A stretch of 42,690 nt of DNA from a virus (taxonomy: Duplodnaviria; Heunggongvirae; Uroviricota; Caudoviricetes). The stretch's first letter is position 1. Every line of letters starts with the position of its first letter. Both the position numbers and the translations under genes were made by a program. Where the stretch lies: IMG/VR virus record IMGVR_UViG_2718217863_000003. One strand, 5' to 3'. The notes under the pieces were generated by a model that saw only the letters and a list, made by a program, of their open reading frames with translations, made no database searches and had not been told where the DNA came from. Below are positions 5,272-42,690 of the stretch, in pieces.

Positions 5272-8200
5272 TCAGCTAATCGTGATGCCTGCAGTGGCTT
5301 TCTTCATCACCACAACCAGCAAATCGCTGATACTGGCTGTGGGATACCAGTTATTTACCAGCCATGCTGACACCGAAAACTCCAGTGTCATGTGACCGTG
5401 ACCGGCAGGCATATCAATAACACCACTGTAAATCAGCGTATTATCCAGCGCGGTACGGTTATAAATTTCAGCACCGTTTTTCCGTACTATCAGGCGGCAT
5501 GACGAATAAATATCGTTATTCTCCCGCTCATGTTTAGCGCCGCTGAATGCCACCGCCGGAATAACAATCTGCCGGTCAAACGGCTGATCGTCATAAACCC
5601 TGACGGTGATGGTCCCTGATGGCCACCGTTCCGGTGCACGGGAGTCCCGGGGGAAAGCTTTGCCCACTGTTTTAACGAGATCGCCTTCAATCTGGTTGGC
5701 GGACAGTTTTCCCAGAACCCGACAGTTCTCGTTAATCGTGACGTTGTTGAGCGTCCCGGCGTTCGCATTCACGTTACCGCTGATATCGGCATTTTTCGCC
5801 GTCAGCCGCCCGTCCGGTGTCAGGGAAAATACCGGAGGATTACCGCCGCTGGTAATGGTGGGAGCCGTCAGGCGTTTCAGGAACACTTCGTTCATGAATA
5901 TCTGATCGCCCTGCCCAACAAACATCGGCTTTGTGTTGCCATTCGCAGGATTAATCATCGCAATCCTGTCTGCCGCCAGCAGCACCTGACTCTGCATGCC
6001 GTCAGGGGTGTTCTCAATACCGGCACCAATACCCGCGATATAAAGGCGTCCGTCCTGCATCTGCTGCAGCTTCACAGCCCACATGCTGTTCAGGTTATTA
6101 TTTGTATCAACCTGAACCTTCTGTATCTGCTGAATTGCCGCACTCTGGTCTTCCAGTTTCTTATTGACGGTCTGCGTGATTTCATTGCTGACATCCGTAA
6201 TGGACGTCCTGATTTCAGCCAGGTCAGGCGCAAGCTGACCGTTATCAATCTGCGTCCACAGCTCCTGAGCCAGATGGGTTTTCCCTATCTCGCCTTTGAA
6301 AAAATCCAGATAACCGGATGCATCATCACTCGGCTGACCAACAGCCTCCACGAATGCCGATTTGCCAACGGTGTTCACACTGCGGATATAAAAGTAATAA
6401 TCATGGCCCGGTTTGATATTGATACTGGCGGCTATCCAGTACAGCGCCGTGCCAAGATAGCGTGCTGTGGTTTCAACCTGCCTGATATCGGTAATCCGCT
6501 TTTCCGAGAACCAGAACTCAAACTGTACCGTCGGATCATAAACCGCAAGATGCGGCGTGGCGGTTATCTGAAAATAGCCCGGCGTCAGCTCAATCCGCGA
6601 CGGCGCTGCCGGTGCGGCAATCCGGAACGATACCGACGCCGGATCGCCCTGCTGCCCCCACGCATTTACTGCCCGGACTGTCAGCCTGTAGTTCCCCAGC
6701 GCCAGTTGTGTGAAGCGGTAAGTGGTTTCCGTCGTCCGGGCCGTGCTGACCAGCCACTCACTGCCGTCATCCGCTGTTACGGTCAGACGGAGCAGGAAGC
6801 TCACGCCCTTCACCACCTTCGGCGTGTCCCAGCGCGCCAGCACCTGATATTCCCCGCTGTCTGCGGTGACTTCGGCAGTCAGGTGCTGCACCGCTGGCGG
6901 CGTGACACCATTCACCGTGCCGCTCTGGTCGCCGTCAAAGTGCGCCCCGTTATCCACGATGGCTTCTTTTTCCGGTACATGCTGCACGGCGGTGATGGCA
7001 TACGTGCCGTCATCGTTCTCACGGATACTCACACAGCGGAACAGGCGCTGGCGCAGCGTCGGCAACTTCAGCCCCCACACGCTGTATTCTGCAACACCAT
7101 CAGGAACCCGGCTCACTTTCACCTTCACGCCGTCGGTGACGGACTGGACCTCCACGCTGACCGGATTACCCTGACCGTCAACCAGGCTTATCAGCGTGGT
7201 ACCGGAGGATGGCAGCGTGATTTCACGGTCGAGCGTCAGCGTCCGGGTCTGGCTGTTCACCGCCAGCACGCGCCCGCCGGTGCTGATACCCGCATAGTCA
7301 TCATCGCAGATTTCAATGACATCCCCCGGTACATGGCGAAGCCCTTCCGCACCCACGCTGAAGTCCACGGTCTGCGTTTCCAGCAGTTCCGTTTTAATCA
7401 GCCACAGCCCGGCGCGGTGCGCCTGCCCCCGGCTGGTACAGCCAAAGGCATCCATCTTCGTGACGTTACGACCGTAACGGGCAATGGCCTGCGTATCTTC
7501 AACAAGCTCTGTCGCCGTCTCCCAGCCGTTGTCCGGGTCAATCCAGTTCACCTCAACGGCATTATGGCGGTCTTTCAGGGCGCTGAAGCTGTAGCGGAAC
7601 GGCGCGCCATCATCCGGCATCACCACATTACTGCGGTTATAGGTCCACACCTTATCTGATGGTCGGTCCTGCACGAACGTCAGCGTCTGCCCGTTCCATA
7701 CCGGCATACAGCGCATCGCCGAGCAGAAATCACTGAGCACATCCCACGCCTTGCGCTGTGTGGTCAGGTACGCATTACAGGTGATGCGCGGCTCCGTGCC
7801 GCCAAAGCCGTCCGGCACCGACTGGTCGCAGTACTGGCCGATGACATACAGCGCCCATTTATCCACATCCGCCGCACCAAGACGTTTCCCCATGCCGTAG
7901 CGCGGATGGGTCAGCATATCCCACAGACACCAGGCCATGTTGTTGCTGTATGCCGGTTTAAACGTTCCGTCCCAGATACCGCTGTATTGCCGCGTCTGCG
8001 GGTTATAGTTCGACGGCACCTGCAGAATGCGCCCGCGCAGATGATAATTACGGCTCACCTGCTGGCTGCCGAACTGCTCCGAATCCACCTGTACGCCGAC
8101 CAGTGCCGTGTTCGGGTAGCACTGTTTCACATCGATGATTTCGGTGTATGACGACCAGAGCGTTTTGTTCTGCAGCTGGTCTGTGGTGCTGTCCGGCGTC

Positions 8201-8751
8201 ATCCTGCGCATCCGGATATTAAACGGGCGCGGCGGCAGGTTATCCACCACCACCGAGGCCAGATACTGCGAGGTGGTTTTGCCCTTAATGGTGATGTCTT
8301 TTTCCGTCACCCAGCCACCATTACGCTGTATCTGAACCAGCAGGCGAACTTCCGACGGATTCCGGTCCCCCTTTGAGGTGGTTTCCACCAGTGCCTGCAC
8401 ACCGAAGGTAAAGCGCAGACGGTCGATGTTTGCAGACGTGATGGTGCGGGTGATCGGCGTGTCATATTTCACTTCCGTACCCAGCACCGTCTCGGAGCCG
8501 GAGGATTCAAACCCCTCCGGCGGTGTCTGCTCCTGCTCACCGGCACGGAACACCACCGTGACACCGGAGATGTTGGTATTCCCCTCAGTGTCCAGCACCG
8601 GCGTACTGTTCAGCAGCACGCTTTTTAATCCATCCACCGGACCTTCAACCGGCCCTTCACTGATGGCGTCTATCACGCTCAGCATCTGGGATGATTTCAG
8701 GTTGTCCTTCGCTTCGCGCGGGGTATGCCCCTTACTGCTGCCTTTACCCAT
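5272..8751 (-). CDS. J: tail tip host specificity protein J
   Basis: 1159 aa; N-terminus [20 protein letters not shown]... as in lambda J; fibronectin-like repeats. Confidence 0.95.
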
Positions 8752-8811
8752 TCCTCACGCTCCAGAAACGACAAAACCGCCCTGAGGCGGTTTCACATAA
8801 AACGTTTTGCA

Positions 8812-9459
8812 TCAGCGACCAATCACCACAACCTGACCACCGTCCCCTTCGTCTGCCGTGCTGATCTCCTGAGAAGCCACCCGCGACCCCACGCGCATTT
8901 CACCGTACAGAACGGGCAGAACATTGCCCTGGGCAACCATGTTATCCAGTGAGGAGAAATAGGTGTTCTGCTTACCGTTATCCGTTGTCTGTGTACGGGG
9001 AGTTCTGGCTTTCGGTGCCAGCATCTGCGCCACACCGCCAAGGATCATACTGGCCCCCGCAGCATACATGCCCGATACAGCCGCAGCTCCCAGCCAGCCC
9101 ACAGGGTTCCACCACGCCACTGCAATCAGCGCCGCACCCAGCACCGCCTGAAACACACCGCCACTTTTTGCTCCCGCAAGACGCGGAACGATGTGGATCA
9201 CGGCACCATTTTTCAGCGGCTCATTAAGACGGGCTGATAATTCGTTTTCGCCTGCATCACGCCCGGCAATGCGCACCTGATACCAGCCATCGCTCAGTTT
9301 CTGACGAAACGCCGGGATCTGCATGGCCAGCGCCCGGATGGCTTCGGCCCCCGTTTTCACACGAAGGTCGATGCGGCGGCCAAATCGTTGCAAATCCCCG
9401 TAAAGGCAGATACGTGCCATGCCCGGTGACGCCAGAGGGAGTGTGTGCGTCGCTGCCAT
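8812..9459 (-). CDS. I: tail assembly protein I
   Basis: 215 aa, MAATHTLPLASPGMARICLYGDL..., C-terminal ...GDGGQVVVIGR; synteny. Confidence 0.85.
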   Translation of the reverse strand: MAATHTLPLASPGMARICLYGDLQRFGRRIDLRVKTGAEAIRALAMQIPAFRQKLSDGWYQVRIAGRDAGENELSARLNEPLKNGAVIHIVPRLAGAKSGGVFQAVLGAALIAVAWWNPVGWLGAAAVSGMYAAGASMILGGVAQMLAPKARTPRTQTTDNGKQNTYFSSLDNMVAQGNVLPVLYGEMRVGSRVASQEISTADEGDGGQVVVIGR

Positions 9460-35467: not shown

Positions 35468-35893
35468 TCAATGTACTGCCACAGCATTTCCTGCCGGGCC
35501 ACCACGGTTCATCTGATTGAAACCGGCGATTGCCACTGCGACAAAATCATCAGCGTCTCTCACCAGTCGCTCCCGCGTCTCCACCAACTCCCGAAAATAA
35601 GCTGAACTGTGGCTGCGCATTCTGGCCACCAGCAAAGGTGGCATTGCCTTTTCGATCGCTGGTAACAACGCCTGAATTTTTTCAACTGCATCAGGGGTGT
35701 CTTTCTCCACCCAGCGGAAAATTTTCTGGGTATTGCGAGCCAGGGCTTCCGGATGGCTGTCGTCATACAGTTCCGGGAACGTCATTCCCAGCTCGAAATA
35801 CGCTTTGGTAATTTTCGCAGCCGGTACTTTTTCGCCGTCCGGATGCGCCCAGGCATTCATCGCCATGCGGATGTGTTCATGCTTGATTTTCAT
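35468..35893 (-). CDS. YdaT-like / CII-position regulatory protein
   Basis: MKIKHEHIRMAMNAWAHPDGEK...; AAGGGGG RBS; follows cro-like gene as in Rac ydaS-ydaT. Confidence 0.55.
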   Translation of the reverse strand: MKIKHEHIRMAMNAWAHPDGEKVPAAKITKAYFELGMTFPELYDDSHPEALARNTQKIFRWVEKDTPDAVEKIQALLPAIEKAMPPLLVARMRSHSSAYFRELVETRERLVRDADDFVAVAIAGFNQMNRGGPAGNAVAVH

Positions 35894-36119
35894 GAATCCC
35901 CCCTTGGTTAGAAGGCGGATTATGATCAGAACCGGGAATGACAACCGTCGGTATGTGTAACTCATATTTGAGCGCCCCGGCAGTGACTGCCTGAATTAGC
36001 AACGCCCATTTCCACGGAACCTCTTCCCCCCACATGCTGACTGTGGTTTTTGACGTTCCTAGAGCTGCGGCTGTTTTAACAACTCCGCCAAAATAGCCTA
36101 ATACTTCTGATTTTTTCAT
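35877..36119 (-). CDS. Cro/YdaS-like HTH regulator
   Basis: 81 aa, MKKSEVLGYFGGVVKTAAALGTSKTTVSMW...; divergent from cI; GGAG RBS. Confidence 0.7.
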   Translation of the reverse strand: MKKSEVLGYFGGVVKTAAALGTSKTTVSMWGEEVPWKWALLIQAVTAGALKYELHIPTVVIPGSDHNPPSNQGGIHENQA

Positions 36120-36210
36120 GAGTCGCTCCATAAAACTGAACGTCAAAAGTTTAATAATCAAAACCAAAGAAAGTCAAGAAACAAAACCATCTGTGTTTTA
36201 AAATCAAAAC
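36120..36210. promoter_or_regulatory. divergent immunity promoter/operator region (OR; PR and PRM)
   Basis: two 16-bp operator-like repeats GTTTAATAATCAAAAC (36149-36164) and GTTTTAAAATCAAAAC (36195-36210); TAAAAT -10 seven nt before cI ATG. Confidence 0.6.
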
Positions 36211-36849
36211 ATGAGCAAGCAAACTATATCTGAACGCATAACCCAACGTATGCATGCGCTAAACCTGAAAGGCAAAGACCTTGTCAATGGCACTGGCGCA
36301 TCAAAAGGCTCCGTAAGTCAATGGATGAACGGTGGAGGAGCGCCGTCCTCGCGTTACATAAGTTCACTGGCAAAAATATTGAAAGTAAACGAAAATTGGC
36401 TTCTTAATGGAGGAGAGTTAAATACAGGTGATTCGCTTGATCTATCTTTACCGCCGATAAAAACGGTTCCGCTACTATCACTTCAGCAGGCAGCAAGCTG
36501 GAGTGATTATATGAAAAATTCCTCAATAACCTCTTGTGTGCAGCTTGTCGGAGAAATCCCGGTCAATACCTTTGCAGTTGTTCTAGAGAGTGACAGTATG
36601 TCAACATCTGGTGGGGGAGTTTCCATCCCAAATGGTTCAACAGTTTTTGTTGATCCCGATCGAACCGTACAACCAGGAAATATTGTCCTTGCCTTACCCA
36701 AAGGGACCACAACACCTGTCATTCGTAAACTGGAGATAGAAGGGCCGGATATTCTTTTAGTCCCCACGAATCCTCGCTACCCTTCAATTATGCTGGATGA
36801 TCTATCTTGCATATTGGGCGTATGCTTTAAAATTCAACAAGATATTTAA
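36211..36849 (+). CDS. cI: CI-like repressor (HTH plus LexA/S24-like autocleavage domain)
   Basis: 212 aa; N-terminal HTH ...LKGKDLVNGTGASKGSVSQWMNG...; C-terminal S24-like; no SD. Confidence 0.85.
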   Translation: MSKQTISERITQRMHALNLKGKDLVNGTGASKGSVSQWMNGGGAPSSRYISSLAKILKVNENWLLNGGELNTGDSLDLSLPPIKTVPLLSLQQAASWSDYMKNSSITSCVQLVGEIPVNTFAVVLESDSMSTSGGGVSIPNGSTVFVDPDRTVQPGNIVLALPKGTTTPVIRKLEIEGPDILLVPTNPRYPSIMLDDLSCILGVCFKIQQDI

Positions 36850-36916: not shown

Positions 36917-36962
36917 GTTTTGATAAAAAAACATTGACCTGAAAAGTTCGTTTTTCTAAACT
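36917..36962 (+). promoter_or_regulatory. candidate OL operator and pL promoter (TTGACC-N17-TAAACT)
   Basis: GTTTTGATAAAAAAAC resembles reverse complement of OR repeats; sigma70 hexamers follow. Confidence 0.5.
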
Positions 36963-37573: not shown

Positions 37574-37792
37574 ATGCAGAAACGAGAACCCGTCATCATC
37601 GCGCCAGACTATACCGATGATGAACTTTATGAGTGGATGCGCCAGAAAATTAATGCAGCGCAGGATTTGAAATGGGCCAATGAAGCCAGGGCTAAGCAGG
37701 CTGAAAATCTGTCCGCTCTGGAGCAGGATATCACCAGGCTGGAAAAAGCAGCGGCATTAAGCATTGCCAGAATGATTACATACCCGCGTTAA
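37574..37792 (+). CDS. hypothetical early protein (72 aa)
   Basis: AAGGAG RBS; acidic N-terminus, coiled-coil-like C-terminus. Confidence 0.5.
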   Translation: MQKREPVIIAPDYTDDELYEWMRQKINAAQDLKWANEARAKQAENLSALEQDITRLEKAAALSIARMITYPR

Positions 37793-38360
37793 TAGATAAC
37801 CAACGAAGCTAAGGTTGGTAATTAAGGAGTTCTCCACGGGTGAGGTGGAGTGCGTGCGCCGGACACGGGTGAGCATCCGGCACTGACAGTTTACTGAAAG
37901 GATATTTCCCTGAAAAGTCAGACCATAACGCGAAAGCGCACGGCGAGGTAGCTGGTTCATAGATAGCCTGTCGTTAAATTTTCGTCGACCGTGCGCTTCC
38001 GGTTGTGGCAATCCGCGAAATGGCGCGGCGGTAAGTATGGCGGGGTTATTCCTTCCCCCGTTGAGGACACCGGGTTGTCAGGTTGACCATACGCTTAAGT
38101 GACAACCCCACTGCAACGCCCTCTGTTATCAATTTTCTGGTGACGTTTGGCGGTATCAGTTTTACTCCGTGACTGCTCTGCCGCCCTTTTTAAAGTGAAT
38201 TTTGTGATGCGGTGAATGCGGCTAAGCGCACGCGGAACAGTTAAAACCAAAAACAGTGTTATGGGTGGATTCTCTGTATCCGGCGTTAATTGTTAACTGG
38301 TTAACGTCACCTGGAGGCACCAGGCACCGCATCACAAAACTCATTGTTGAGGGCGCGATA

Positions 38361-38549
38361 ATGAAAACGTTATTACCAAACGTTAATACGTCTGAAGGTT
38401 GTTTTGAAATTGGTGTCACTATCAGTAATCCTGTATTTACTGAAGATGCCATTAACAAAAGAAAACACGAACGGGAGTTATTAAATAAAGTATGCATTGT
38501 TTCAATGCTGGCCCGTTTACGTCTGATGCCAAAAGGATGTGCACAATGA
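38361..38549 (+). CDS. hypothetical early protein (62 aa)
   Basis: internal ATG with GAGGG RBS; MKTLLPNVNTSEGCFEIGV... Confidence 0.4.
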   Translation: MKTLLPNVNTSEGCFEIGVTISNPVFTEDAINKRKHERELLNKVCIVSMLARLRLMPKGCAQ

Positions 38550-38737
38550 ATCCAGTATTTGCACTTATTCTGACGGTTTTTCTTGTTTCCGGAGAGCCAG
38601 TTGATATTGCAGTCAGTGTTCACAGAACAATGCAGGAATGTATGGCAGCAGCAACCGAACAGAAAATTCCAGGCAACTGTTATCCGGTCGATAAAGTTAT
38701 TCACCAGGATAATAACGAAATCCCGGCAGGATTTTAA
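38546..38737 (+). CDS. hypothetical small protein with N-terminal signal-like segment (63 aa)
   Basis: MNPVFALILTVFLVSGEPVD...; overlaps previous stop. Confidence 0.4.
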   Translation: MNPVFALILTVFLVSGEPVDIAVSVHRTMQECMAAATEQKIPGNCYPVDKVIHQDNNEIPAGF

Positions 38738-38830: not shown

Positions 38831-41272
38831 ATGAGCACTGATAAAGAAGAATTTGCACTATATTGCGAAGCAAAAAATGACAAAGTAAGAAAACGCCTAG
38901 GAATTAAAGGTGGTTTTTACTGGACTACAGCAAAAAAATTATCTGTTGCAATCTCCCGCTGCATTACCGCAATGGATGACAACGATTATGATGAAGACGA
39001 CTTTAAAAAACCCGTCCGCGTCAATTTGCCCGTTGTTGACGACCTTCCGCCAGAAGGCGTGTTTGATACTGAATTCTGCAACCGCTATGAAAAAGGCGGG
39101 AAAGATGGCATCACAATGACATTTATCGGCCCTTCCCCCTCTGTTCAGGACAAACCAGCCAGCACTGACAATACCAACATCAACGGCGAAGCCATGACTG
39201 AGATTGAGGAGAGCATGCTTCTGCCTGTCTCCGGTCAGGAACTGCCCATTCGTTGGCTTGCTCAACACGGCAGCGAAAAACCAGTAACGCACGTTTCACG
39301 CGACGAACTCCAGGCATTACACATTGCACGGGCTGAAGAACTACCGGCTGTTACTGCCCTGGCTATTTCGCATAAAACCAGTCTGCTCGACTCGCTGGAG
39401 ATTCGCGACCTCCACAAACTGGTTCGTGACACTGACAAAGTTTTCCCTAATCCTGGTAATTCAGACCTGGGACTAATAACTGCTTTTTTCGAAGCATACC
39501 TAGACGCTGACTACACTGATCGGGGTCTGCTGACAAAAGAGTGGATGAAAGGAAATCGTGTTTCACGCATCACCCGCACGGCTTCCGGTGCTAATGCTGG
39601 CGGTGGGAACAAAACCGATCGCAATCCGAATTTAGTACACACCCTCGACACACTGGATGTGGAGATTGCAGCAGCCACACTTCCGATGGATTTTAATATT
39701 TATGAAATTCCGGGCAGCGTTTATCGTCGCGCAAAAGAAGTAGTCCTGAACAAAGAAAGTCCGTTCAAAGAATGGTCCGCAGCACTTCGTGCAACCCCGG
39801 GTATTCTGGACTATTCCCGCGCCGCTATTTTTGCACTTATCCGAAGCGCACACCCTGAATTTTATCACTACCCGGGACGCCTTCAGGGGTATATCAACGC
39901 CTATTTGACGGAAACTGATCACGAGAACCCCAGCAAGGAAACTCTCACAGCTGCCCGGCATACGCCGGAAAAAGATATCCTGGAAGAAATTAACCGCGAG
40001 GTGGTTACTGAGCGTGAAACAGAAGAAGAAAAACCACAACCATCTGACGCAATGGCAGGTGAACAGGCAACAACTGAAACAATGGAACCGGATACAACTG
40101 AACATGGCCAGAACGCGCAGTCGCTGGATGCTCAGTCGCAGGTGAGTTCCGCTAACCAAGTAAAAGTCACCGCTGACGAAGTAAACAAAATTATGCAGGC
40201 AGCCAATATCAGCCAGCCTGACGCCGATAAGTTACTTGCTGTATCGCGTGGTGAATTTGTTGAGGGGATTAGCGACCCTAATGATCCGAAATGGGTCAAA
40301 GGGATCCAGACTCGCGATTCTGTGAACCAGAACCAGCATGAATCGGAACGGAACGACCAAAAAGCGGAACAAAACAGCCCAAATGCGTTACAAAACGAGC
40401 CAGAAACGAAACAATCCGAACCAGTGGCGCAACAGGAAGTGGAAAAAGTCTGCACCGCCTGCGGTCAGACCGGCGGCGGCAACTGCCCTGATTGTGGCGC
40501 GGTGATGGGCGACGCAACATACCAGGAAACATTCGATGAAGAGTATCAGGTTGAAGTTCAGGAAGATGATCCGGAGGAAATGGAAGGCGCTGAACATCCA
40601 CACAAGGAGAACACTGGCGGCAATCAGCATCACGATAGCGATAATGAAACTGGCGAGACGGCAGATCACTCAATTAAGGTGAACGGTCATCAAGAAATCA
40701 CATCCACCAGCAGGACGTGTGACCATCTAATGATCGACCTTGAAACCATGGGAAAAAATCCTGATGCCCCGATCATCTCAATAGGTGCAATATTTTTCGA
40801 TCCGCAAACCGGAGATATGGGACCGGAATTTAGTAAGACTATCGATCTGGAAACTGCTGGCGGAGTCATTGATCGGGACACCATTAAATGGTGGCTTAAG
40901 CAATCACGCGAAGCGCAATCTGCCATTATGACCGATGAAATCCCGTTAGATGATGCACTGTTACAATTGCGGGAATTTATCGACGAAAACTCCGGTGAAT
41001 TTTTTGTTCAGGTCTGGGGAAATGGAGCCAACTTCGACAACACGATTTTGCGCCGTTCATACGAACGGCAGGGGATCCCCTGCCCGTGGCGTTACTACAA
41101 CGATCGCGATGTACGCACAATCGTTGAGCTGGGGAAAGCCATAGACTTCGATGCCAGAACGGCTATTCCATTCGAAGGTGAGCGCCATAATGCACTTGAT
41201 GACGCCCGTTACCAGGCAAAATACGTTTCAGTTATCTGGCAAAAACTGATCCCGAGTCAGGCTGATTTTTAA
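38831..41272 (+). CDS. large early-region exonuclease-domain protein (C-terminal DEDDh-type 3'-5' exonuclease motifs)
   Basis: 813 aa; C-terminal [25 protein letters not shown]; central [16 protein letters not shown]; acidic low-complexity linker. Confidence 0.65.
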
Positions 41273-41333: not shown

Positions 41334-41603
41334 ATGAGCGAACAGTACCTGATAACGCTCGACGAGTGGAAACCAAAACGGTTCAGTCTCCCAATAACAA
41401 ACACTACCCTGGTGAAATACGGAAAACTAGGATACATCGTTCCAAGGCCACAAAAAATTCGTGGGCGTTGGCTGATAGATCGCCGAGCAGTATTTGTTGG
41501 GCCTGGTGAAACGGGAATTGCGCCGGAAATTCATACTGGCGATGATGATGCACTGAAGGAGATTTTAACTCATGTCACCGAGGCCACGAAAAAACAGCAC
41601 TGA
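41334..41603 (+). CDS. xis: putative excisionase
   Basis: 89 aa immediately upstream of and overlapping int; GGAG RBS. Confidence 0.55.
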   Translation: MSEQYLITLDEWKPKRFSLPITNTTLVKYGKLGYIVPRPQKIRGRWLIDRRAVFVGPGETGIAPEIHTGDDDALKEILTHVTEATKKQH

Positions 41604-42690
41604 CGTAGCCGGTCTTTACGAAAAGTTTGATCGCAGAACTGGCAGAGTTTACTACCAGTATAAAAATCCTGTGACTGGAAAATTTCACGGACTCGGAACA
41701 GACAAAGGTAAGGCAGAAAAAATCGCTTCCACAGCCAATCAGCGAATAGCTGCAGCAGAAGCTGAATATTTCATGCGCAAAATTGATGAAAGTCTGTCAG
41801 CAACAAAACGTCGGGGTATCAGATTAAAGGCATGGGTTGATCGATATCTGAAAATACAGGACACGCGACTGAAAAATGGAGATATTGCAGCTACAACTCA
41901 CAAAGAAAAAACTCGAATGGCTGCATACCTGGTTTCCCGTCTGGGAAACCACCCATTGAAAGAACTGGAAGTAAGAGACTTTGCATTAATACTGGATGAG
42001 TGGCTGGATAAAGACATGGTCAGCACAGCGAGAGTAAATCGTGGATTATGGGTTGATATTTATAAAGAAGCACAGCATGCAGGGGAAGTTCCTCCTGGAT
42101 GGAATCCTCCGGAGGCTACCCGTAAACCGATCCCTAAAGTAACCAGAGCCAGGCTCACCATGGAAGACTGGCAAAAAATTTACAATGCAACGCCTGAAAA
42201 ACACTTTATCCGTAACGCAATGCTTCTTGCGATTGTTACTGGTCAGCGCCGTGATGACATTTGCCACATGCGTTTTTCAGATGTGTGGAACGAACACTTG
42301 CATATCACCCAGGGAAAAACCGGAATGCGTCTGGCGTTACCGCTTACACTACGCTGTGATGCCATTGGGATAACGTTAAAAGAAGTTATTGATGGGTGCC
42401 GAGACAGAATATTAAGTCCATATCTAATCCATAGTCGGCACCAGAAACAACCGAAGCCGATGAGTAAAGACAACCTGAGCGACTACTTTGCCAAAGCACG
42501 GGATCTGGCTGGGATAATTCCACCAGCAGGAAAAACTCCGCCAACATTTCATGAACAACGCTCTCTATCAGAACGGCTGTACCGTGCACAGGGTATCGAT
42601 ACAAAAACATTACTAGGACATAAAGTCCAGGCAACCACCGATCGCTATAACGATACTCGAGGTCAGGAATGGGTTAAGTTGGTTATTTGA
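41572..42690 (+). CDS. int: tyrosine site-specific integrase (lambda Int family)
   Basis: 372 aa; C-terminal catalytic region ...HEQRSLSERLY...LLGHKVQATTDRY; stop at window end. Confidence 0.9.
   Translation: MSPRPRKNSTDVAGLYEKFDRRTGRVYYQYKNPVTGKFHGLGTDKGKAEKIASTANQRIAAAEAEYFMRKIDESLSATKRRGIRLKAWVDRYLKIQDTRLKNGDIAATTHKEKTRMAAYLVSRLGNHPLKELEVRDFALILDEWLDKDMVSTARVNRGLWVDIYKEAQHAGEVPPGWNPPEATRKPIPKVTRARLTMEDWQKIYNATPEKHFIRNAMLLAIVTGQRRDDICHMRFSDVWNEHLHITQGKTGMRLALPLTLRCDAIGITLKEVIDGCRDRILSPYLIHSRHQKQPKPMSKDNLSDYFAKARDLAGIIPPAGKTPPTFHEQRSLSERLYRAQGIDTKTLLGHKVQATTDRYNDTRGQEWVKLVI

Follow-up and report, generated by a model that had tools for sequence, protein, structure and literature searches.

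RecE of the Rac prophage in Escherichia coli K-12 is encoded in a leftward operon upstream of xis-int, and its C-terminal part (residues ~564/606-866) is a PD-(D/E)XK 5'-3' nuclease. The N-terminal module of RecE carries no assigned function in the literature, and the N-terminal 600 residues have been reported to enhance linear-linear recombineering (PMC11611040). Phage T4 DexA (227 aa) and E. coli EcD (189 aa) each consist of a single domain. They share the Pfam domain PF16473 and the DEDDh catalytic residues, and both are DNA 3'-5' exonucleases (PMC12153337). The founder of this Pfam family, Rv2179c of Mycobacterium tuberculosis, is a stand-alone bacterial protein and is described in the family entry as a 3'-5' exoribonuclease. 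With respect to the recombination (Rec) modules of lambdoid phages, Zheng et al. 2025 reported the occurrence of DnaQ-like nucleases and defined a 'Tritos' class with a nuclease, no SAP, no anti-RecBCD function and many Chi sites. The same authors pointed out that the usual effect of 3'-5' exonucleases on homologous recombination is inhibitory and not stimulatory (PMC12315714).

The DNA analysed here, referred to as the window, is a viral stretch of 42,690 nucleotides (IMG/VR record IMGVR_UViG_2718217863_000003). Positions 38831 to 41272 on its plus strand are occupied by a mosaic exonuclease gene, an ATG-initiated open reading frame of 813 codons whose product is predicted to consist of a RecE-type N-terminal module, an acidic linker and a DEDDh nuclease. 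Coordinates, strand and length were exactly as described in the original prediction, which had been made from the letters of the window alone. The open reading frame is real and intact. A GAGG sequence is located 10 nt 5' of the ATG, the start is the one used by PGAP in a 99.98%-identical prophage, and the protein is 100% identical to RefSeq entry WP_000102136.1 ("exonuclease"). Contigs with the identical protein number at least 1000. Of 5426 complete E. coli genomes, 1245 have a match that spans 80% or more of the gene, and 4745 have a match of any kind, which ranks the gene among the commonest E. coli prophage genes. The matches listed in a homologue search with the full protein were near-identical E. 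coli sequences only; the diversity of the family was sampled from a protein library clustered at 50% identity. Gene and architecture are already in the databases, as the Pfam combination PF06630 plus PF16473 and under the PGAP name 'exonuclease'. A literature search retrieved no study of this domain combination.

The genes are arranged in the order cI - ydfC - DicF - dicB - ydfD - exo - xis - int, beside potC, and the exonuclease gene, which is intact, belongs to the early left operon of a lambdoid prophage of E. coli. This leftward operon is headed by a gene for a cI-type repressor of the LexA/S24 family (36211 to 36849, plus strand), from which cro is divergently oriented (35877 to 36167, minus strand). 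The early-left transcription unit upstream of the exonuclease gene includes the small RNA DicF (38135 to 38186, plus strand; Rfam RF00039, 76.7 bits), dicB (38361 to 38549, plus strand) and ydfD (38546 to 38737, plus strand). Coordinates of the latter two were transferred, with an offset of 1446, from the PGAP annotation of the 99.98%-identical prophage. Directly 3' of the exonuclease gene follow xis (41334 to 41603, plus strand) and, overlapping its end, int (41572 to 42690, plus strand), both of which are supported by the list of open reading frames and by PGAP. The gene had been placed at the Rec-module position before xis-int, and this was borne out; the slot is the same as that of recE in Rac. 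Between the exonuclease gene and xis/int there is no annealase gene, and in 17 of 25 species-level loci of the DEDDh type the next large open reading frame is an integrase homologue. A scan of the window for promoters and terminators gave no signal above that of shuffled sequences and no promoter dedicated to the exonuclease gene. On the plus strand between position 36962 and the start of the gene no promoter-like site was detected, the number of sites not exceeding that in shuffles. Since the leftward operon is controlled by the repressor and no promoter of its own was detected, the exonuclease gene should be silent in the lysogen.

Residues 632 to 803 (40724 to 41239, plus strand) correspond to a predicted DEDDh 3'-5' exonuclease domain of the Rv2179c/DexA/EcD family. 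This region matched PF16473 with an E value of 1.2e-67 and 227.4 bits (cutoff 27) end to end, over profile positions 2 to 177 of 177. Rv2179c has the same domain, and no similarity to the 813-aa protein was seen outside it. All five catalytic residues are present, namely D636 and E638 (in MIDLETMG), D736 (in GANFDNTIL), and H786 and D791 (in HNALDDA). They align to the catalytic positions of DexA and of an EcD-like protein, and the respective columns are kept in 17 to 18 of 18 aligned sequences representing clusters of 50% identity. The T4 DexA structures 8KEL and 8KEN were matched by the domain at E = 2e-6. Sequence identity amounts to 38% with the EcD-like protein of 189 aa and to about 28% with DexA; unlike these single-domain proteins, the 813-aa protein has an N-terminal extension of 630 residues. 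The EcD-like protein was equated with the published EcD (PMC12153337) on the basis of the forward primer, the alignment of A78 to DexA D90 and the 3' end. The printed EcD reverse primer had no match in the viral contigs and apparently contains one extra A compared with the gene end in locus L008. Residues 632 to 803 are predicted to form a catalytically complete DEDDh (DnaQ-like) 3'-5' exonuclease fold of the PF16473 family, in agreement with what had been proposed for the C-terminus. This assignment rests on sequence, since the full-length structure prediction gave a poor model of the domain, owing to the few alignment rows that cover it. In the whole 813-aa protein no match to PD-(D/E)XK, YqaJ or DUF3799 families was found with Pfam, and tblastn searches of the window with both PD-(D/E)XK types gave E values of 0.27 or higher throughout. 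The view that the C-terminus is not of the PD-(D/E)XK type was further upheld by the lack of any BLASTP alignment past RecE residue 591, and the domain search assigned the protein as a whole to no well-characterised family.

The N-terminal ~600 residues had been considered unassignable in the original prediction but turned out to be the N-terminal region of RecE. BLASTP aligned residues 58 to 615 with residues 50 to 591 of K-12 RecE at 59% identity (near 95% for residues 117 to 265). The alignment stops at RecE residue 591, just short of the PD-(D/E)XK nuclease domain, and no part of the protein aligned to RecE residues 592 to 866. PF06630 ('Exonuc_VIII') matched residues 57 to 189 (E = 1.5e-35; 123 bits, cutoff 25). 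Residues 1 to 615 matched positions 1 to 602 of the 877 positions of NCBIfam model NF007259 (exodeoxyribonuclease VIII) with a score of 944.4, which lies under the equivalog cutoff of 1269 and leaves the protein outside this equivalog. The protein is therefore related to RecE; judged by these similarities, it is a RecE whose nuclease head has been exchanged, with a DEDDh exonuclease in place of the C-terminal PD-(D/E)XK nuclease.

The folded N-terminal module comprises residues 1 to 395 (38831 to 40015, plus strand), with a small alpha/beta domain (residues 1 to 100) and a helical domain (residues ~120 to 390). The core conserved throughout the family extends over residues ~226 to 395 (RTxSGxNAGGGxxTDR...H...PGILDYSRA). 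Foldseek searches with the full model yielded no match at E<=1e-3 in the PDB, and no match was obtained for the N-terminal module in BFVD; the predicted fold of the module appears to match nothing solved in the PDB search. It is followed by a linker (residues 396 to 631; 40016 to 40723, plus strand) which was delimited by composition, pLDDT and alignment to RecE, with which it is shared. Residues 396 to 630 include 50 D/E as opposed to 15 K/R. AlphaFold2 pLDDT values below 50, indicative of disorder, cover most of the linker (residues 402 to 445, 451 to 464, 490 to 536 and 560 to 645), and the acidic low-complexity linker noted at the outset was thus recovered. Within the linker, a conserved motif of 10 residues (479 to 488; 40265 to 40294, plus strand) also occurs in RecE, the Tritos protein and Gifsy-type proteins; 27 of 79 long representatives of the family show its pattern. 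A four-cysteine, zinc-ribbon-like element is located at residues 541 to 555 (40451 to 40495, plus strand). It had been noticed before, yet with a spacing of CxxC-x8-CxxC and as not assignable; the spacing is CxxC-x7-CxxC, and the element lies in the RecE alignment, being kept in K-12 RecE as CNACGQTGGDNCPDC. Its local pLDDT is 72 to 78 inside a disordered stretch, and it occurs sporadically, in 7 of 79 family representatives.

At the DNA level the gene is a mosaic. Nucleotides 339 to 792 are 92% identical to K-12 recE, and nucleotides 1331 to 2442 are 98% identical to a gene of phage Tritos, whose 5' half differs. The two phages thus have the 3' 1112 nt of the gene in common, and the order dicB-ydfD-exo-xis-int is alike. 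The N-terminal ~270 residues of the Tritos protein are of another kind, whereas the N-terminus here is of the Rac RecE type. The K-12 pseudogene ydfE was tried as a counterpart of the N-terminus and rejected; it is dissimilar and a remnant of the alternative Tritos N-terminus. Long RecE proteins of the Gifsy-1 type are 83% identical over the conserved core, residues 226 to 395 (loci L098-L112), and have the linker motif in part. Their C-terminal end is a DUF3799 PD-(D/E)XK domain with a large insertion, and a RecT-family gene always follows.

Family loci were retrieved with a trimmed alignment of the N-terminal core. Among 70 loci from the GTDB species-representative set, 25 were of the DEDDh type and 33 of the complete PD-(D/E)XK type. 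An adjacent RecT gene was present in none of the former and in all 33 of the latter (Fisher p = 5.7e-17). The best 80 IMG/VR loci showed the same distribution, with RecT in 0 of 50 DEDDh and in 18 of 19 PD-(D/E)XK loci; the open reading frame beside the PD-(D/E)XK type was confirmed as PF03837 RecT. Across Enterobacterales, one and the same N-terminal module is found fused to either type of nuclease. The gene in the window has no recT downstream, in contrast to that of RecE. Searches of the window by tblastn with two RecT types, lambda Bet, P22 Erf, lambda Exo and Gam, and P22 Abc1 and Abc2 gave a best E value of 0.18. No annealase is annotated by PGAP in the near-identical prophage, Sak and Sak4 having been judged from this annotation only. 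Both analyses confirmed the earlier statement that a RecT/Bet-like partner is missing.

The window contains 12 Chi sites, as compared to 1.74 expected and with none of 100 shuffles reaching 12, yet this number in 42.7 kb may not be far above the density of the E. coli chromosome. In the host there is about one Chi site per 4.5 kb. At a density that may be close to that of the host, the count indicates that Chi is not avoided, more than that it is strongly enriched. Eight sites are located on the minus strand, which is the late-gene strand, and four on the plus strand. The Tritos type (class B) is characterized by a nuclease, the lack of annealase, SSB and anti-RecBCD genes, and at least four Chi sites on the late-gene strand. 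The same was seen in the window, where the nuclease is accompanied by no annealase, SSB or anti-RecBCD gene. Modules with a nuclease and no annealase had been described as the Tritos type in 2025 (PMC12315714).

What the 813-aa protein acts on (DNA or RNA), its polarity and its role were derived from homology and genomic context. The most likely role, to which we give an even chance of being correct, is annealase-independent processing of DNA 3' ends during lytic growth by a Tritos-type protein consisting of a RecE module and a DEDDh head. The PL transcript would express the protein upon induction or infection, and the nuclease head would then strip nucleotides from DNA 3' ends. The N-terminal module would deliver or tether the DEDDh head as it would the nuclease of RecE. 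Because no annealase is present, a strand-annealing pathway of the RecET or Red type would not be expected. Instead, DNA ends would be conditioned, for example by trimming of 3' tails, to become substrates of RecBCD, and recombination-dependent growth would proceed via RecBCD, Chi and RecA of the host. The inhibitory effect that 3'-5' exonucleases usually have on homologous recombination, and the description of Rv2179c as an exoribonuclease, count against this role.

The main rival to the end-processing role is a defence function like that of EcD. According to this explanation, which we regard as unlikely, the protein is an anti-phage nuclease of the EcD or 'HREX' kind that degrades superinfecting DNA, such as the 5hmC-containing DNA of T-even phages, and spares that of the host. 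Apart from the 38% identity of the nuclease domains, it draws on the observations that E. coli was protected from T4 by EcD supplied on a plasmid, and that EcD cut T4 DNA and left unmodified dsDNA uncut (PMC12153337). The EcD-like gene, too, belongs to the early genes of a prophage and is located beside the Dam methylase gene in a P2-like int-C-cox...exo-dam region, whereas the gene studied here belongs to a lambdoid PL operon. The neighbouring gene dicB is reportedly protective against some phages, which was likewise counted for defence. However, the acidic residue proposed to read the 5-hydroxymethyl group (D169 in DexA, E145 in EcD) corresponds to K769 in the 813-aa protein, with Lys in 13 of 18 aligned sequences, although the alignment of this loop is uncertain. 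Moreover, W152 of DexA, which is also Trp in EcD, is replaced by Tyr (Y756). The tetramer-forming D90 of DexA, which is Ala in EcD and whose loss has been put forward as the cause of the phage specificity of EcD, is still present as D708. Silence in the lysogen, as expected from the repressor-controlled operon, also argues against defence, and so does an N-terminal module that is common to a recombination nuclease. PADLOC found no defence-system match for the whole protein and only a weak match of the isolated domain to a CRISPR-associated DEDDh protein.

Scavenging or removal of nucleic acids in lytic growth, with host DNA fragments (as for T4 DexA), retron msDNA or a signalling oligonucleotide as substrate, is improbable. 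The early position in a lytic operon would fit such a function, and RecE of Rac is said to trigger a retron via degradation of its msDNA. On the other hand, degradation of the host chromosome is not known for temperate lambdoid phages, the window contains no companion endonuclease, and nothing in the PADLOC output links the protein to a defence system. Scavenging would also leave unexplained the strict alternation with PD-(D/E)XK plus RecT on a common N-terminal module.

We attach little probability to an exoribonuclease like Rv2179c that would process or turn over the PL transcript, DicF or host RNAs. DicF is part of the same transcript, the Pfam family is named for Rv2179c, and variants of the PGAP name read '3'-5' exoribonuclease'. 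Yet the nearest characterised relatives, DexA and EcD, act on DNA, the N-terminal module is otherwise joined to DNA nucleases, and the genomic slot is one of DNA-transaction genes. A decaying mosaic remnant without function, for which the mosaic structure at the DNA level, truncated alleles of 417 aa (loci L077-L080) and the pseudogene state of the K-12 counterpart ydfE might speak, is highly improbable and was rejected. The open reading frame is intact and widespread, the full-length form being identical on at least 1000 contigs, the catalytic residues are conserved across the 50%-identity cluster representatives, and the same architecture is found in 25 species-level loci and in deposited phage records including Tritos. 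A true RecE (exonuclease VIII) with 5'-3' dsDNA exonuclease activity, as annotated in phage records and in line with the strong NF007259 match, was rejected as having hardly any probability because the score is below the NF007259 cutoff, RecE residues 592 to 866 are not aligned, and PD-(D/E)XK Pfam matches and RecT are absent.

The findings on the 813-aa protein do not overturn current understanding. The label 'exodeoxyribonuclease VIII' in many phage records implies a 5'-3' dsDNA exonuclease and a RecT partner, and the protein has neither the fold nor the partner. Returning to DNA end processing, we tentatively suggest, as a possible though doubtful extension, that the N-terminal module of RecE is a nuclease-agnostic platform which docks to a partner from the host or the phage, for instance the replisome, RecBCD, SSB or an end of DNA, and into which two nucleases of opposite polarity have been plugged. 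The DEDDh form would then serve annealase-independent end preparation or act as a prophage nuclease against superinfection. The alternation between DEDDh without RecT and PD-(D/E)XK with RecT would make the RecE N-terminus tractable by domain swaps. The findings bear on the use of host recombination by Chi-rich lambdoid phages that lack systems of the Red or RecET type (PMC12315714). If the platform reading is true, the DEDDh version would represent a distinct strategy in such Chi-rich lambdoid phages, in which a 3'-5' exonuclease of the phage prepares DNA ends for recombination by RecBCD, Chi and RecA of the host.

The 813-aa open reading frame at 38831-41272 (+) was confirmed as originally predicted, with an ATG start; a GAGG lies 10 nt 5′ of it. 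Its DNA is 100% identical to copies on many E. coli chromosomes, where the PGAP name is 'exonuclease' (WP_000102136.1), and in deposited phage records such as vB_EcoS-640R1. Of 5426 complete E. coli genomes, 4745 contain a match to the gene and 1245 a match with at least 80% gene coverage; the identical protein occurs on at least 1000 contigs. A prophage of E. coli M217, integrated beside potC, is 99.98% identical to the window. Databases already hold the gene, and the literature already describes its module type.

The C-terminal domain was identified with high confidence. Pfam profile PF16473 (Rv2179c-like 3′-5′ exoribonuclease domain) spans aa 632-803 from end to end (E 1.2e-67). A sequence search of solved structures returned only 8KEL and 8KEN, a 227-aa 'Exodeoxyribonuclease' (E 2e-6), which is T4 DexA; the dexA translation of phage T4T gives the same alignment. 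The catalytic DEDDh set consists of D636 and E638, D736, and H786 and D791. In an alignment of 18 sequences, comprising the window protein, DexA, an EcD-like protein and 15 relatives that represent clusters at 50% identity, each of these columns is kept in 17-18. Judged by the residues present, the nuclease is catalytically complete, and its assignment as DnaQ-like rather than PD-(D/E)XK was correct.

The N-terminal ~600 aa had been regarded as unassignable but proved to be RecE's own N-terminal region. The NCBIfam equivalog NF007259 (exodeoxyribonuclease VIII) matches aa 1-615 with model positions 1-602 of 877, scoring 944 against an equivalog cutoff of 1269, and PF06630 ('Exonuc_VIII') matches aa 57-189. 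In BLASTP, residues 50-591 of K-12 RecE align with aa 58-615 at 59% identity, and near-identity is seen over residues 117-265 of the window protein. Both the acidic linker and the cysteine element fall inside the alignment, which ends just ahead of the RecE nuclease domain. The counterpart of the latter element in K-12 RecE is CNACGQTGGDNCPDC; in the window protein the spacing is CxxC-x7-CxxC, one residue less than the CxxC-x8-CxxC first proposed. The homology accounts for the origin of the region, not for its role. Full-length RecE boosts linear-linear recombineering (PMC11611040).

AlphaFold2 modelling with an 80-sequence alignment gave high confidence for aa 1-100 and ~120-390; residues ~400-645 were predicted to be disordered except for a small ribbon near 540-557. 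A separate model of aa 1-395 from 108 sequences has a mean pLDDT of 86. Foldseek gave no significant fold match, either in the PDB (full-length model, E ≤ 1e-3) or in BFVD. The linker is long and acidic (50 D/E versus 15 K/R in aa 396-630) and tethers the DEDDh nuclease to the RecE N-terminal module. Of 79 long representatives of the family, only 7 have the zinc ribbon and 27 the GISDPxDP motif, which makes both accessory linker features. In many relatives lacking the zinc ribbon (e.g. at loci L098, L135, L165 and L178) the linker carries a short conserved motif, roughly (I/V)xNLGxGxF(S/T)(V/I)(D/E)xL, which is not in the window protein.

When aa 1-620 were used as HMMER query against 1.84 billion cluster representatives, only 268 clusters were found at E ≤ 1e-3; the RecE N-terminal family is narrow. 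Its conserved core covers aa ~226-395 (RTxSGxNAGGGxxTDR...H...PxDFDIY...RRAKE...PGILDYSRA). Among the 79 long representatives, local BLAST (E 1e-5) assigned 15 DEDDh heads, 19 RecE PD-(D/E)XK heads and 45 of neither type. Part of the loci left unclassified by the Rac-type query alone encode a divergent, Gifsy-type PD-(D/E)XK nuclease (Pfam DUF3799), and in others the nuclease was not recognisable. Exchange also affects the N-terminus. The C-terminal 370 residues of the phage Tritos protein are common to the window protein (98% DNA identity over nt 1331-2442) and its N-terminal ~270 residues, of a type that survives as a remnant in K-12 ydfE, are unlike those of the window protein. Between K-12 recE and the window gene, DNA identity reaches 92% over nt 339-792 of the latter. 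The family amounts to a series of module swaps, in which N-termini are exchanged as well as heads.

Several loci depart from this arrangement. At L169 (Pectobacterium polonicum) a nuclease-less protein with the RecE N-terminal core ends near 8000 and is followed by a separate ORF (8158-8895) for a 245-aa protein, DnaQ-like by a 'VIDTETT' ExoI motif only; this split suggests that the link between N-terminal module and DEDDh nuclease can also be non-covalent. Proteins at L178-L182 (Enterobacter, Lelliottia, Citrobacter) show a fourth C-terminal type, with ~260 residues past the core, no recognisable nuclease and no RecT; they are probably the 'RecE-2' proteins without nuclease domain mentioned by Zheng et al. 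(PMC12315714). The 417-aa alleles at L077-L080 (IMG/VR) stop right after the core and are either pseudogenes or the N-terminal module made alone. Finally, L113 ('MAG: Veillonella parvula'), with a DEDDh head and a core region 98% identical to the E. coli-type gene, is almost certainly an Escherichia binning contaminant, not a Firmicutes occurrence.

For loci encoding the conserved core, nuclease head and downstream gene were classified. In a species-level set (70 loci of GTDB representative genomes, almost exclusively from Enterobacterales), RecT was adjacent at none of 25 loci with a DEDDh head and at all 33 complete loci with a PD-(D/E)XK head (Fisher's exact test, p = 5.7e-17). The next large ORF was an integrase homologue in 17 of the 25 DEDDh loci. 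Among the best 80 IMG/VR loci, which are closely related and therefore not independent, RecT was found at 0 of 50 DEDDh loci (at least 1.2 kb downstream available in 47) and at 18 of 19 PD-(D/E)XK loci, the exception ending at a contig edge. A Pfam search identified the adjacent gene as RecT (PF03837, E 7e-37). The original prediction that the window lacks a RecT/Bet-like partner was right: none of the tblastn queries (two types of RecT; Exo, Bet and Gam of lambda; Erf, Abc1 and Abc2 of P22; both PD-(D/E)XK heads) did better than E = 0.18. RecT is missing throughout the DEDDh class, not from the window alone. That nuclease polarity and the presence of RecT alternate strictly on one shared N-terminal module was not found stated in the literature examined.

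The exonuclease gene belongs to the leftward early operon of a lambdoid prophage whose early region is of the Qin/Dic type. It is preceded by cro (35877-36167, -), a cI-type repressor gene (36211-36849, +), ydfC (37574-37792), the DicF sRNA (38135-38186, +; Rfam 76.7 bits), dicB (38361-38549, +) and ydfD (38546-38737, +), and followed by xis (41334-41603, +) and int (41572-42690, +). No promoter-like site was found on the + strand from 36962 to the exonuclease start, with a site count not above shuffles, so the simplest reading is that the gene is transcribed from PL. DicF, dicB and ydfD are directly 5′ of the gene as in the K-12 Qin prophage, where the counterpart ydfE is a pseudogene interrupted by IS2 and has the alternative Tritos-type N-terminus. 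The cI-like ORF is unbroken in the window (212 aa); in the M217 prophage PGAP annotates only its C-terminal 112 aa ('LexA family protein'). The late region encodes a P27-family small terminase subunit, an HNH endonuclease and an HK97-family prohead protease. A low-GC block at 26-28 kb is due to a 1070-bp copy of ISApl1 (IS30 family; 26785-27854, transposase ORF 26844-27845, +), the element that mobilises mcr-1. This copy is 100% identical to plasmid copies and is missing from the M217 prophage, where the empty-site junction lies within an iraM-like gene. At L005 990-3252, opposite window position ~733-741, the M217 prophage carries part of an IS629 and an inserted group II intron (ltrA), neither of which is in the window.

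The Chi sequence GCTGGTGG occurs 12 times in the window, a count reached in none of 100 shuffles, versus 1.74 expected. The sites range from 11030 to 42527, eight being on the - strand (late genes) and one within the exonuclease gene (40704-40711). Many Chi sites are known from lambdoid phages without anti-RecBCD functions (Zheng et al. 2025, PMC12315714). The window, with an exonuclease lacking an annealase or anti-RecBCD partner and no avoidance of Chi, fits the 'Tritos' class of these authors (Table 1; n=4 phages; nuclease +, SAP -, SSB -, anti-RecBCD -; Chi 21/6 to 7/2). The class is therefore already catalogued.

An EcD-like role in defence was weighed against recombination. Kang et al. 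2025 solved the T4 DexA structure and described EcD, an E. coli DexA homologue. EcD protected cells against T4 and cut the DNA of this phage but left unmodified dsDNA uncut, a strategy named 'HREX' (PMC12153337). A 189-aa EcD-like protein (MIDTET...PFLNI) was identified in viral contigs and matched to EcD by the published forward primer, by A78 aligning to DexA D90 as described, and by the gene 3′ end; it is likely the 'bacterial' HREX protein. Compared with the 3′ end of the EcD-like gene, the reverse primer printed in the supplement of PMC12153337 contains an additional A. The gene is found at viral locus L026 (5679-6269, -) and at L008, L013, L023, L024 and L029, with cox-side genes on one side and a gene for a Dam-type methyltransferase on the other. 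This setting is a P2-like early region (int, C-type repressor, cox, ..., exo, Dam methylase), so EcD is probably a prophage gene too. The EcD-like protein is 38% identical to the window nuclease domain. DexA D90 is kept as D708, whereas the proposed 5hmC-reading residues W152 and D169 correspond to Y756 and K769; 13 of the 18 sequences in the alignment have Lys in the latter column. A 5hmC-specific function is not simply transferable to the window protein. EcD-like defence is an unlikely role, if one to be kept in mind. Scavenging or anti-defence by this early-operon nuclease is improbable. An RNase, the activity named in PF16473, is slightly more improbable still. A decaying remnant is very doubtful, and a true RecE is hardly conceivable, being refuted by tests such as the NF007259 score below cutoff and an alignment that stops before the RecE nuclease domain.

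The preferred reading is that the protein would be a 3′-5′ DNA exonuclease active in lytic growth, which would not run a RecET/Red-type annealing pathway and would more likely condition DNA ends for host RecBCD/RecA-dependent recombination, with the N-terminal module supplying the same targeting function as in RecE. Taken as one package, these steps have about an even chance of being right; the specific biological role is put forward tentatively, at rather less than even. The main ground for continued interest in the window gene is the strict alternation between nuclease head and RecT.
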